A stretch of 64,000 bases of DNA from the NCBI GenBank assembly GCA_026026165.1, contig JAPEUD010000029.1:62001-126000 (forward strand). The letters are read 5' to 3'. Made by a program: the position numbers and the translations under genes. A model generated the notes under the pieces. The model did no database searches and had not been told where the DNA came from. It worked only from the letters and a program-made list of their open reading frames with translations. Of this stretch, positions 1,806-11,740 are shown piece by piece; positions within the stretch are counted from its first letter, which is position 1, and each line of letters starts with the position of its first letter. This stretch comes from Sarea resinae. Its lineage: Eukaryota.

Positions 1806-2958
1806 ATGTTGCTGCCCTCAGCACATAGTCAATGTCTCCCTTCGATAGCAACCCTCGAATCTCTCATCCATCAAGCCCTTCCCTCGGCCTCCTCCAACAA
1901 TCTCACCATCGTCCGCGTCGAAGATTTGCAAGGGACGGTCAATTCCTTGTTCCTGCTCCGGCTGTCTGATGGCTCGGCAGTGGTGCTGAAGATGGCGCCT
2001 CAGCAGCAGCAGCAGCAGCAGCAGCAACGACAGCAGCATTCATCTAGTACGCGGCTGCTGAGACATGAACATCGCTGTCTCGAGACCGAAGCCAGGATCT
2101 TGAGTCTGCTCTCCAATGCCACCACCCCTATCACCACCGATAACAACAACAACAGCAACACACGCATTCGGGTTCCTGACCTCCTTAGTTTCGAAGCGAG
2201 GTGCGGACTATTACGCGCACCTTATATGCTCACGACCTTCACGCCAGGCACCTCTCTTCGAGTCTTGGAGCCGCAGCTAACAGAAGTCGAGACGAAGCGC
2301 ATCTACCGGACATTGGGCACTCTCACAAAGACACTGAGTCGCCAGTACACAGCCGCTGCGTTCGGGCAACCCGCGTTGGTCCAATCAGGCCACGGCAGCC
2401 GAAGCTGGCGCGGCGCATTTTGTTCGCTTCTCGAATCCGTGCTGCGGGACGCCGAGGACATGCTGGTGTCATTGCCGTACGAACAGATCCGAGAACAGGT
2501 CGATCGGGTTGCGGGACTGCTTGAAGGGGTCGTGCAGGCTAGGCTCGTGGCACTGAATCTCGCCGATTCGGGGAACGTGCTGCTGAGTCCGACCACGAAG
2601 CAGATTACAGGACTATCAGGATTCGGGAACGCTATATGGGGTGACGTATTGATGGCTGAGGCATTTGTAGATGCGGGAATGTCTGGGCCTTTCTTAGAGG
2701 GCTTGGGAGCTCCTCGTGTGAGGATTGGAGCAGAGAGGATGCGCGTATTATTGTATGCATTAAATCCGGTTCTCTCCCCGGCTGTGATTGGCTGACGTTC
2801 TTGTTTCTTCCTCTAGATATGCGTGTTATCGTGCTGTCGTCACAATCGCGGCGTACTATTATCGCCCTCGAGATGATGGTCTCGGTTTGAGATTCGAACT
2901 CGAGGCTAGGAAGTCTCTTACGGGCAGCCTAGCTCAGCTAGCGGCTGCGCACATATGA
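1806..2958 (+). CDS. Aminoglycoside phosphotransferase (APH)/kinase-like protein, 2 exons (intron 2753-2816)
   Basis: The 329-aa ORF has APH-like segments (VVLKMAP...LLRHE, EARIL, RVPDLL, PYMLT, FG...W, GNVLL, AIWGD). A GTATGC...GCTGAC...CTAG intron joins it in frame to YACYRAVV...ELEARKSL...* (TGA 2956-2958). Confidence 0.8.
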
Positions 2959-3102
2959 TCAAGGTGTCCCAGAACATTCCTTGATCGTTGCATTCCGAGT
3001 TTGGGCTCTTTGGCGCGATGAAGGTCGAGGGCCTGTACGGTCCTGGGAAGAAGGAACGTTGAAATGGTGTCCGGTGGAAGTAGGGTCCGAGGCGAACGTA
3101 TA

Positions 3103-5166
3103 TTAGCCAGAACTACCTTCATTCCCGTCTTCATCCCGCGGCATCTGCAAACCCAGCATTCCCATGAGATTTCCTCCTGGCCCAGCTAAACCGGCCTGGC
3201 CCTTGAAGCTCTCGAGGAGATTCTTTGCCAGATTGAAATCAATGTCCACTGCTCCGTCTGAGTCGGAGCCCTCGTCGTCATCATCGAGGTTCTCATTTCG
3301 CTTTTCGGTCTCTTTCCCGCTATGGCTCTTTTGCCTCGCTTGTATAGCCTCCTTCTTAGCTGCAGTCTTCTCTACGGGAGGATCGAGGTTTAGCGCCCCA
3401 GATTCTTTCAGCTCGGCTTCCATGCGCTGCATCAGATCTTGTAGGGCTTTGCCTTCGTCCTCCTCATTTTCCACATCTTCCGCGTCCCCCGCATCTTCCG
3501 CATCTTCCGCATCAAGCTCTACGACTCTCGATGCCTTCGTGTCTGTCTCGCGTGTTGTCGAGGAAGCGTTGTCCTTAGTCGCCTCCACTGGTATGCCCAT
3601 CATCTCACGCATCATTCTGGTAAACTCCTCCTCATCAAATGACACATCTTTGTCCTCGCCCTCGGAGCTGACTTCGCTGCTTTCTTCATCATCCTCATCG
3701 TCCTCATCATCAAAGTCCATGTCGTCAAGAAATTCGGCTCCTTCGGCTCCAGCACTGTCATCATTGAGAAATTGCTCGAATCGAGAGACCATCTTTCGCA
3801 AATTCTCTTGAGCCGCCTTATCACCGAATCCGTCAGTTGAAGCAGATGCCCTAACCCCACCCCCTCGCTCAGCACGTTTTCCAGCCAGTTCGGTTTCAAA
3901 ATCCTCGAAGTTGATATCAAGCCACTTCTCATCGTCTTCTTTTCTGCCCCAGCTCCGTATATCTGCATCAGACGGCAGTTTTTCCTCGCCACTCTCCACA
4001 TCTTCTAGGAGCACTTTGATCTCCCTGACTGATATCTTGTCCTGATTCTGAGGGTCTGCTAGAAGCATCTCGAAGCCACAAGCGACTTTCATGCCGATCT
4101 CTGCTTGGTTAGACTCTGTCGTCTGCGCTTCCTTGGGAAGCTTTTCCTGCCATGCCTTGGGTGCCGAAAACTGTTGGCTCTTGAGCTGTGCGTAGCCGAC
4201 TTTGGTGAACTTCGTGCTTATGGCGACCAAATCTTCGGGTGGGAACTTGAGTCCAACTTGGCCTTTCGACTGTAGCGGCTTGAGTGATATGGGGTCTCGG
4301 AGGTAAAACGCCTCTATGGCTGCACTGATATAGGCTGGCTTCTCATGTAGTATATAAGCTAGCTTCCGTGGGACCACTATTCGTGCGAAATGAAAATTAT
4401 CGGCAATTTGCTGCGGGTATTTTTGGAGCCGATAGAAGGCTTCGGACTCGATAAGAGGCGAATGTATTAGCTTAGAGAAGTTCTTCGAGATTGCCGCGAG
4501 AGCTTCTTTTGGGGTTATCGTTCGTGAGGGCAGACGAGCTTCTTTGCTCTCTGTGTGGAGCGGCTCCTGTGGTATTATGAAGAGTTTTCCGTCATGTATC
4601 CAGACCTGACACATGTCAGTCACTATTTCGCGCCAGAATCATATGAATTTAAATGCGCTCACTCGATTGTCCGCAACTTCGGGGTTCAGCCACCGCGGCA
4701 ATGCATTTGCTGCTTCGATGAGCAGGAACTCGCCGTCAGTATCCACCACTCTTATCCATAGAGCCTCGAATTTCTTGCTCAGCTCCCGCAGAATATAGAC
4801 TATCAACCACTCGTCTTCTACAGAGTCCCCAAAATTCGTCCTCCCTTGCAGGAATGTGAGGCCTGCAGTGAGATTCATAAGTTAGCCCGCAATGGATGCT
4901 GCATGAGATCAAGTGTCCTGACCATCTGCCCGCTGGATCGCCAGCTCAAAACCCTCTCTCTGCCATATGTAGTCTCTCAGGAGGCCTTTCTTCAGAGCGG
5001 TGGCGGCCGCCTGTATATCTAACAAGCTCTGTCGTACTTGCGCCGGATCCTTGAGCTTCGAATCGATGATATAGAGGGAGTATTCGACGCAGTCTTCCGG
5101 CAGGCGTTTTGGGAAGCCATCGAAGCCTTCACCAAACCACTTCAGGCCATCCTGAGGGACATCCAT
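3103..5166 (-). CDS. Ecdysoneless/SGT1 (hSGT1) family protein, 3 exons
   Basis: Exons encode EDCVEY...DYIWQREGF, GRTNFGDSVEDEWLIVYILRELSK...DTDGEFLLIEAANALPRWLNPE...NR|VWIHDGKL, AFYLRDP, and C-terminal NLLESFKGQAGLAGPGGNLMG, all typical of the family. ATG is at 5166. Confidence 0.9.
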
Positions 5167-10628: not shown

Positions 10629-11740
10629 ATGGGTGTGCCCTTCGACTATGCGCCTGACCGGCCGGAGCACGTCGATGCTATTCTCAATGGTCTCGACCGC
10701 TACAACCCCGAGACGACGTCGGTTTTCCAGGACTACGTGGCTTCACAGTGCGAGGAGAAGACGTATGACTGCTATGCCAACTTGGCTCTCCTGAAGCTGT
10801 AAGTTGATTTCTTTGCGCTTCGCAGCAGCGCCGCCTGTACATTGGCCAGCTGTTTCAGGCTCAATTCGATGAGGCGCGTAGCCTCTTAGATGATGATCAA
10901 TTTTACAACGTTTCCTATTACCTGACGGGCCCACCGGAGCTTGAATCACTCCGGGTCCTATGAAGCGATTGTATATTAGCTCTATCTGACACTCTTTCCC
11001 CTCGATCCCACCTGTCATTTCAGCAATTTTTTTGCATGCCAAGAAGTCTGCACACGGCTAATGCAAAACCTGCGATCCGCACCCACAGCTACCAATTCAA
11101 TCCCCATCTCGCGCGCGACGAGACCATTACCAACATCCTCGTCAAAGCCCTCACGGTCTTCCCCTCTGCCGACTTCAGCCTGTGCCTCCACCTCCTCCCT
11201 CCCCACATTCTCACCCCACACGCCGTGGCATCAGGCCTCGAGAACCCCGCTGCAGGAGACGCGCCTCTCTCTGAAGCCGTTCAGAAGCTTGCTACCCTTA
11301 ATACTTTACTTTCAGGCGCGCAGTATGCTCAGTTCTGGACAACACTGGACAGTGATGATCTGTATGCTGATCTGGTGGCCGATGTTGCCGGATTCGAGGA
11401 GTTGATGCGCGTGCGAATTGCAGTCAACGTGAGCCAAAGCTTCCGCGAGATTGAGCGAAAAGTGTTGGAGTCATGGTTGGGCCTGCAAGGGAAGGAATTT
11501 GAGCGGTTTGTGAGCGAAGTGTGCGGATGGGACATCAGTGAGGGAGTGGTGGCTGTGCCGGTCAACAAGGAGAACGAGGCCAAGGGTACCATTGTGAGGG
11601 AAAATGTCAAGTTTGATCGTAAGTTCACCCTCCCCGCTCAGCTCTCTCTTGTCTCCCTGTTTGCATCTCACGCTCCTTCTAACGCGCTTTGCACAGAATT
11701 CTCGCGCATGATCAAGAGGGCATATGAGCAGCCGGCATAG
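10629..11740 (+). CDS. eIF3k: Eukaryotic translation initiation factor 3 subunit K, 3 exons (introns 10799-11088, 11619-11696)
   Basis: [14 protein letters not shown]...GLDRYNPET...[17 protein letters not shown]...[17 protein letters not shown]...[18 protein letters not shown], with canonical splice signals. Confidence 0.93.
10885..10994 (+). ncRNA. Intronic box C/D snoRNA with two predicted rRNA guides (SNORD44-like D-box guide)
   Basis: Box C ATGATGA 10890-10896, D' CTGA 10922-10925, an internal hairpin (CCGGAG/CTCCGG), C'-like ATGAAGC 10960-10966 and box D CTGA 10986-10989. TATTAGCTCTA before box D is antisense to conserved 18S UAGAGCUAAUA. ACGTTTCCTATTA before D' pairs (one G:U) with conserved 25S UAAUAGGGAACGU. 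Confidence 0.85.

Follow-up and report, generated by a model that had tools for sequence, protein, structure and literature searches.

The 64,000-nucleotide (nt) stretch of Sarea resinae contig JAPEUD010000029.1 analysed here, referred to below as the window, carries on its plus strand the gene for subunit K of the translation factor eIF3 (eIF3k), and the first intron of this gene holds an element laid out like a dual-guide box C/D small nucleolar RNA (snoRNA). We regard it as highly probable that the element represents a genuine and quite ordinary intron-processed box C/D small nucleolar ribonucleoprotein (snoRNP) with two active guides, and a gene of a known kind. This reading is carried by its motif architecture, by its complementarity to eukaryotic ribosomal RNA (rRNA) fragments and by its conservation in the same intron of many other fungi.

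The snoRNA was placed at positions 10886-10993 of the plus strand on the strength of its box layout, of its being the sole generic layout in the window and of a family alignment (alignment A1), its presumed mature ends being approximate, and the dual-guide architecture in the order C–guide–D'–stem–C'–guide–D is complete. The C box ATGATGA (10890-10896) is followed by a spacer of 11 nt and by the 13-nt D' antisense element ACGTTTCCTATTA (10908-10920), which a single C at 10921 separates from the D' box CTGA (10922-10925). A hairpin at 10927-10958, predicted from the fold to be the canonical stem of an internal kink-turn (K-turn), joins D' to C' and exposes the motif TGAATCAC (10942-10949) in its apical loop; then come the C' box ATGAAGC (10960-10966, with its first A bracketed and TGAAGC at 10961-10966), a short spacer, the 11-nt D antisense element TATTAGCTCTA (10974-10984), a single T and the D box CTGA (10986-10989). 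The hallmarks of the class are found, namely a C box of the form RUGAUGA near the 5' end and a D box CUGA near the 3' end, internal D' and C' boxes joined by a hairpin and able to form a second K-turn, and rRNA antisense elements of at least 10 nt, each ending 1 nt before D or D', as judged on eukaryotic rRNA fragments that are not this species' own. A preliminary description of this stretch had reported a complete layout of C, D', hairpin, C' and D, and this was borne out: the spacing of every box is canonical, and a generic regular expression for C-D'-C'-D matched once in the 64-kb window, both strands included, at position 10890, compared with a mean of 0.05 layouts per window expected by chance (100 first-order Markov simulations). 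The hairpin at 10927-10958 folds with -14.6 kcal/mol and a z score of -2.66 relative to shuffles, and it reappears in the fold of a 145-nt stretch. Directly 5' of the snoRNA, the minimum-energy fold also displays a small hairpin GAGGC...GCCTC at 10871-10885.

By its sequence matches, the host gene is eIF3k. Exon 1 (10629-10798) comprises 56 codons plus 2 nt; intron 1, the host of the snoRNA, occupies 10799-11088 and runs from GTAAGT to CAG; exon 2 covers 11089-11618; intron 2, the only other intron of the gene, covers 11619-11696 (GTAAGT...CAG, with the branch motif CTAAC); and exon 3, with TAG at its end, covers 11697-11740. Read from the ATG at 10629, the spliced gene gives a translation that includes LALLKLYQFNPHL, and with both introns removed the coding sequence is 744 nt long (247 amino acids plus stop). 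Exon 2 matched the Pfam family CSN8_PSD8_EIF3K at 1.4e-37, its PDB sequence matches were eIF3 subunit K in five of five cases, and the nearest Atlas clusters were EIF3K, two of the best three having Ascomycota as their most frequent phylum, so that the host had been named correctly before. Intron 1 had also been described as unusually long, and at 290 nt it does exceed intron 2, the single intron available for comparison, which measures 78 nt. A putative branch site CTAAT could be read from the sequence at 11058-11062, 27 nt before the 3' splice site. Exon 1 further contains a sub-threshold match to mir-72 on the minus strand (10737-10781; 16.3 bits versus a gathering score of 60, E 0.7), which we took as chance.

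Target pairing was read on two rRNA fragments, one from the large subunit (LSU; L088) and one from the small subunit (SSU; L089), which were fetched from a viral-contig collection with short motifs containing the targets; the independent part of the target evidence is the Rfam assignment of these motifs to eukaryotic rRNA, together with the consensus. L088 matched LSU_rRNA_eukarya with 130 bits over model positions 2922-3300, and positions 1-110 of L089 (minus strand) matched SSU_rRNA_eukarya with 30.2 bits and an E value of 3.6e-7, under the gathering score, which was expected because the fragment is just 110 nt long. L088 (1-338) consists of about 130 nt of eukaryotic LSU rRNA, reaching from the A-loop to the sarcin-ricin region, followed by AT-rich sequence whose alignment to the rRNA model is poor, and it could be an insertion or intron in ribosomal DNA, or a chimeric assembly. 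In L089 (1-407), which is probably chimeric, 107 nt of 18S-like sequence are joined to unrelated sequence that looks coding.

On L089, the SSU sequence TAGAGCTAATA is matched by the D guide in 11 contiguous Watson-Crick pairs (-16.2 kcal/mol, including a bulged extension), and the guide's +5 nucleotide, T10981, lies opposite the second A in TAGAG. When this A is set equal to A161 of Neurospora crassa, the bases at A154, A159 and U167 also fit L089, and no other register fits; since the base identities of A154, A159, A161 and U167 all agree, the D target corresponds to N. crassa Am161. The N. crassa C/D snoRNA table equates this site with those of human U44 and Arabidopsis snoR18, and a passage in PMC6461891 equates human A166/SNORD44 with Arabidopsis A162/SNOR18a,b. 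An 18S target predicted by the +5 rule and identical with N. crassa Am161, human A166 and Arabidopsis A162 is thereby supported. The preliminary description had likewise pointed to the A targeted by SNORD44, in agreement with the 11 of 11 pairs and with a register that fits four N. crassa sites, and its statement that the 18S site carries no methylation in Saccharomyces cerevisiae is matched by the "-" entries in the N. crassa table. The element would thus resemble human SNORD44 (U44) in guiding the equivalent 18S nucleotide, A166. SNORD44 is intron-encoded in the host GAS5 and acts as a single guide, for which a partner site in 28S is not known.

The D' guide forms 13 contiguous pairs with the LSU sequence TAATAGGGAACGT on L088, 12 of them Watson-Crick and one a G.U pair at T10913 (-17.2 kcal/mol). 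The target lies directly 3' of the A-loop hairpin, where the preliminary description had placed it, and is upper-case consensus in the Rfam model. Counted from the A-loop G, the register of L088 puts A at +12, A at +24, C at +26 and C at +37, which equal Arabidopsis A2935, A2947, C2949 and C2960; these four are among the methylation sites listed in PMC8053127, where the A-loop G2923 is the counterpart of yeast G2922. The +5 nucleotide of the D' guide, A10917, faces the U at +13, which by offsets from published site numbers is Arabidopsis U2936, N. crassa U2893 and Chaetomium thermophilum U2894. In yeast numbering it is U2935, and this 25S site is not known to be methylated in S. cerevisiae.

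Conservation was followed in metagenomes with a guide-plus-box pattern consisting of 7 nt of the D' guide, 0-3 free nt, CTGA, a gap of 22-52 nt, 10 nt of the D guide, 1 free nt and CTGA, which carries nothing specific to eIF3k. The scan gave 87 loci, of which the 86 that match the regular expression were usable, L067 being left out as it contains N. In all 86, eIF3k exon 1 was found directly upstream on the same strand (tblastn), and exon 2 lay directly downstream in 79, the other seven contigs stopping before it. The orthologous introns presumably sit at the same codon position; all 52 unique complete ones run from GT to AG and measure 181-406 nt (median 223), and the distance from the end of the D box to the 3' splice site, 99 nt in the window, amounts to 65-141 nt (median 81) in the relatives. 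As exon 2 identity to the window spans 50-93% among these loci, the sample is phylogenetically broad. Family members measure 75-102 nt from C box to D box. With regard to the earlier view of an ancestral dual guide retained in this intron, retention is supported by 86 of 86 usable metagenomic loci, and "ancestral" would follow from the shared target pairs, not from sequence homology.

Feature counts refer to 61 unique relatives, or to 62 family members when the window copy is included. Outside the search pattern, the C box TGATGA is exact in 55 of the 61 relatives (RTGATGA in 46), and the D' spacer is a single C in every one of them, although the search left this position open to 0-3 nt of whatever base. 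Just before the section of the D' guide that the pattern prescribes, 7 nt read [A/C]ACGTTT in 56 of 61, and the remaining five differ solely by C/T changes opposite rRNA G, by which pairing is kept. The first T of the 11-nt D guide, also outside the pattern, is present in 54 of 61, and alignment A1 shows no variation in the TG of the C' box, where 58 of 62 members read TG(A/G)NG. In this comparison with metagenomic relatives, features beyond the pattern were thus kept as well. The D' guide U (T10913 in the window) stands opposite rRNA G as a G.U wobble in 59 of 61 relatives, and just two carry the fully pairing C.

In 57 of 62 members a hairpin forms from the spacer between D' and C'; the mean z score is -2.2, 44 of 62 lie below -1.5, and the stems differ in sequence (CCGGAG/CTCCGG, GAAATC/GATTTC, CAGGC/GCCTG, GAGCCCG/CGGGCTC). 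The 8-nt flanks outside C and D pair with their own partner at a mean of -2.46 kcal/mol, compared with -0.75 kcal/mol for the flanks of other members (Mann-Whitney p 3e-5), examples being AGCGCA/TGCGCT, GGTACC/GGTACC and GGGAC/GTCCC; a terminal stem of 4-6 base pairs (bp), with differing sequences, is found in about half of the relatives. The terminal stems of the family appear to covary, and the D'-C' hairpin is conserved as a structure.

TGAA[TC]C stands unpaired in the apical loop of 39 of 62 members, on stems that vary (window 10940-10949; alignment A1). In the window, the loop sequence TGAATCAC is an 8-bp Watson-Crick complement of the 18S sequence GTGATTCA, at a distance of 73 nt on the 3' side of the D target; in other members the match grows in different directions and reaches 9-10 bp. 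Shuffled spacers reached 8 bp with the 18S fragment in 8 of 200 trials. Judged from this complementarity, the loop may serve as an accessory rRNA pairing element. Yeast snR70 has, like the family described here, a conserved loop atop the D'-C' stem that is complementary to rRNA, and pairing of this type is described in passages of PMC3116282 as stimulating methylation and as adjoining the methylation site; unlike in snR70, the best loop match in our case lies at the above distance from the D target in the 18S sequence.

How the RNA would be expressed, processed, bound by proteins and used in methylation is drawn from established snoRNP biology. Along these lines, a snoRNA of about 105 nt would be transcribed within the eIF3k pre-mRNA, freed by splicing of intron 1 and trimmed to ends protected by the core proteins Snu13, Nop56 and Nop58 and the methyltransferase Nop1/fibrillarin, which would bind the terminal C/D motif and the internal C'/D' K-turn with its stem at 10927-10958. 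The antisense elements would then pair with pre-rRNA and bring fibrillarin to the nucleotide that faces the fifth position before each box. Through the D guide it would 2'-O-methylate the 18S A (N. crassa A161, Arabidopsis A162, human A166), and through the D' guide the 25S U lying 13 nt 3' of the A-loop G.

A plant snoRNA offers a close functional parallel. Arabidopsis RiboMeth-seq assigns SnoR18 to 18S A162 and 25S A2935 (PMC8053127, Table 1), in line with the earlier statement that plant snoR18 guides both regions, the fungal D' guide being shifted by 1 nt. snoR18 belongs to the seven C/D families that are conserved throughout land plants, and its genes lie in polycistronic clusters. Like it, the fungal element would be one RNA for the 18S A162 site and for the 25S stretch just 3' of the A-loop; unlike it, the fungal RNA has its D'+5 position on the U next to A2935 and resides in an eIF3k intron, not in a polycistronic cluster. 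The likeness is one of target pairs and published assignments, and on this analogy the function of the family would be that of plant snoR18.

Known families and published lists gave little that resembles the element. A permissive Rfam scan revealed chance-level matches only (mir-72, CRISPR-DR64, snoU82P and a box-driven match to Afu_300). The last of these, Afu_300 (RF01509), was rejected, as it reached 16.2 bits and an E value of 1.5 against a gathering score of 40, with aligned letters that are mainly boxes and with different guides; apart from this sub-threshold match, no snoRNA family aligned to the element at E values up to 10, so that likeness to human SNORD44 could not be detected either, provided that Rfam 15 includes its family. 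Afu-300 itself belongs to an intergenic cluster of Aspergillus fumigatus and counts as an orphan snoRNA, and the A. fumigatus snoRNA list contains none with these targets. An LSU site at N. crassa 2892 or 2893 is assigned to none of the 55 C/D snoRNAs in the N. crassa table. The main text of a fungal snoRNAome survey mentions no host genes and no eIF3k host, the non-coding RNA paper on Trichophyton rubrum makes no mention of U44, snoR18 or eIF3, and the literature containing both "eIF3k" and "snoRNA" included none on fungi by title. The main text of the C. thermophilum modification paper names A-loop sites only, the full site lists standing in its supplements (PMC12723226). Supplementary family tables aside, the snoRNA family appears not to have been described in fungi.

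Several results weigh against the reading as an ordinary dual-guide snoRNP. The Rfam scan proposed as a check in the preliminary description was run, and at gathering thresholds Rfam 15 returned no match anywhere in the window. In the window copy, the 8 nt next to the boxes form no terminal stem (+1.5 kcal/mol), the one canonical feature that is lacking there. One metatranscriptome run, in which 0.13 of the sampled words were shared, gave contigs on exon 2 of relatives and on a 34-nt piece at the start of the intron and none on the snoRNA, a result that is uninformative either way. Both rRNA fragments are eukaryotic and neither is this species' rRNA; their matches to the guides exist by construction, because the fetch motifs contain the targets. 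The letters of the metagenome pattern are conserved by construction too, and orthologous introns without the guides lie beyond the reach of the scan. The Rfam SSU consensus gives part of the 18S target in lower case, and the target is for this reason not universal among eukaryotes. The D'+5 position falls one nucleotide 3' of Arabidopsis A2935 and not on the plant-methylated nucleotide; since the D' spacer is invariant, this offset is a property of the family, and since known non-canonical second sites lie at +6 and not at +4, as read from the U24 example in PMC8053127, the plant nucleotide is not an obvious alternative target. Finally, RNAalifold found 0 pairs on the MAFFT alignment of all 62 sequences, because hairpins of variable length are out of register there, and in a second alignment of 33 spacers some stems were still out of register; the structural support is therefore per sequence and not column-wise.

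The element could be an ortholog of N. crassa CD32 (CD_32), already catalogued, whose D' guide switched its target in one lineage. CD32 is intronic like the element described here, and with 82 nt it falls within the length range of our family; its D guide is assigned to the same 18S Am161 site with the same number of 11 pairs and no mismatch. Its D' guide, however, is assigned to 18S Um167 (11 pairs) and ours to 25S: 5 nt in the 3' part of the window D' guide are complementary to the 18S stretch targeted by the D' guide of CD32, and at most this number of contiguous complementary nucleotides was found in the 18S fragment, compared with 13 in the LSU, so that the Um167 pairing of CD32 is not reproduced. 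In addition, CD_32 is traceable in Sordariales only, as far as the main text of the fungal snoRNAome survey goes, and the main texts leave the host gene of CD32 unstated. We consider this orthology unlikely, and it is a question of filing, not of function.

A real snoRNA might also methylate through its D guide alone, with the D' element and the loop acting, for example, as a folding chaperone of the peptidyl-transferase region, or modifying another nucleotide or RNA. The difference between D'+5 and the mapped plant site, the wobble kept in nearly all relatives (59/61) and the N. crassa table without an LSU site at 2892 or 2893 would suit such a role, and yeast C'/D' motifs that are conserved although they serve no methylation target are described in PMC3116282. 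Nevertheless, the D' element is kept exactly over the 13 nt of its pairing with 25S, its variants are pair-preserving only and its distance to D' is invariant, which together are the signature of a working methylation guide, and the same source describes the adjacent "guide" of yeast snoRNAs with inactive C'/D' as unconserved (PMC3116282); we judge a role of this kind to be quite improbable. Hardly any weight is left for a conserved intronic regulatory element of eIF3k, engaged in splicing control or autoregulation and merely resembling a snoRNA, or for a chance arrangement. The strict tie to one intron of one gene would suit such an element, but the conserved letters are exactly those of the snoRNA boxes and of two rRNA-antisense stretches at the canonical distance of one nucleotide from D' and D, and elsewhere in the intron, as in the hairpin stems, the sequence varies freely. 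Chance is excluded by the 0.05 layouts expected per window and by the recurrence in 86 loci.

With the dual-guide snoRNP as the preferred reading, a more far-reaching scenario can be outlined, in which the dual guide function predates the split of plants and fungi, became locked in the eIF3k intron in filamentous ascomycetes and had its 25S target shifted by 1 nt to a Um beside the A-loop, with a third antisense element, the loop, docking on 18S to assist. We offer it tentatively, as a possible but rather doubtful history.

None of these results would surprise a snoRNA specialist. They fill an annotation gap, as a widely conserved fungal snoRNA family finds no matching model in Rfam 15, and of its predicted functions the lists of N. 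crassa and A. fumigatus lack the 25S one and hold the 18S one in N. crassa CD32 alone. The snoRNA explains the length and the conserved position of eIF3k intron 1 in these fungi. It also adds two predicted rRNA methylations, apparently lacking in S. cerevisiae, one of them beside the A-loop of the ribosome, and presents a clean case for studying, across plants and fungi, how dual guides keep together or move by a single nucleotide.

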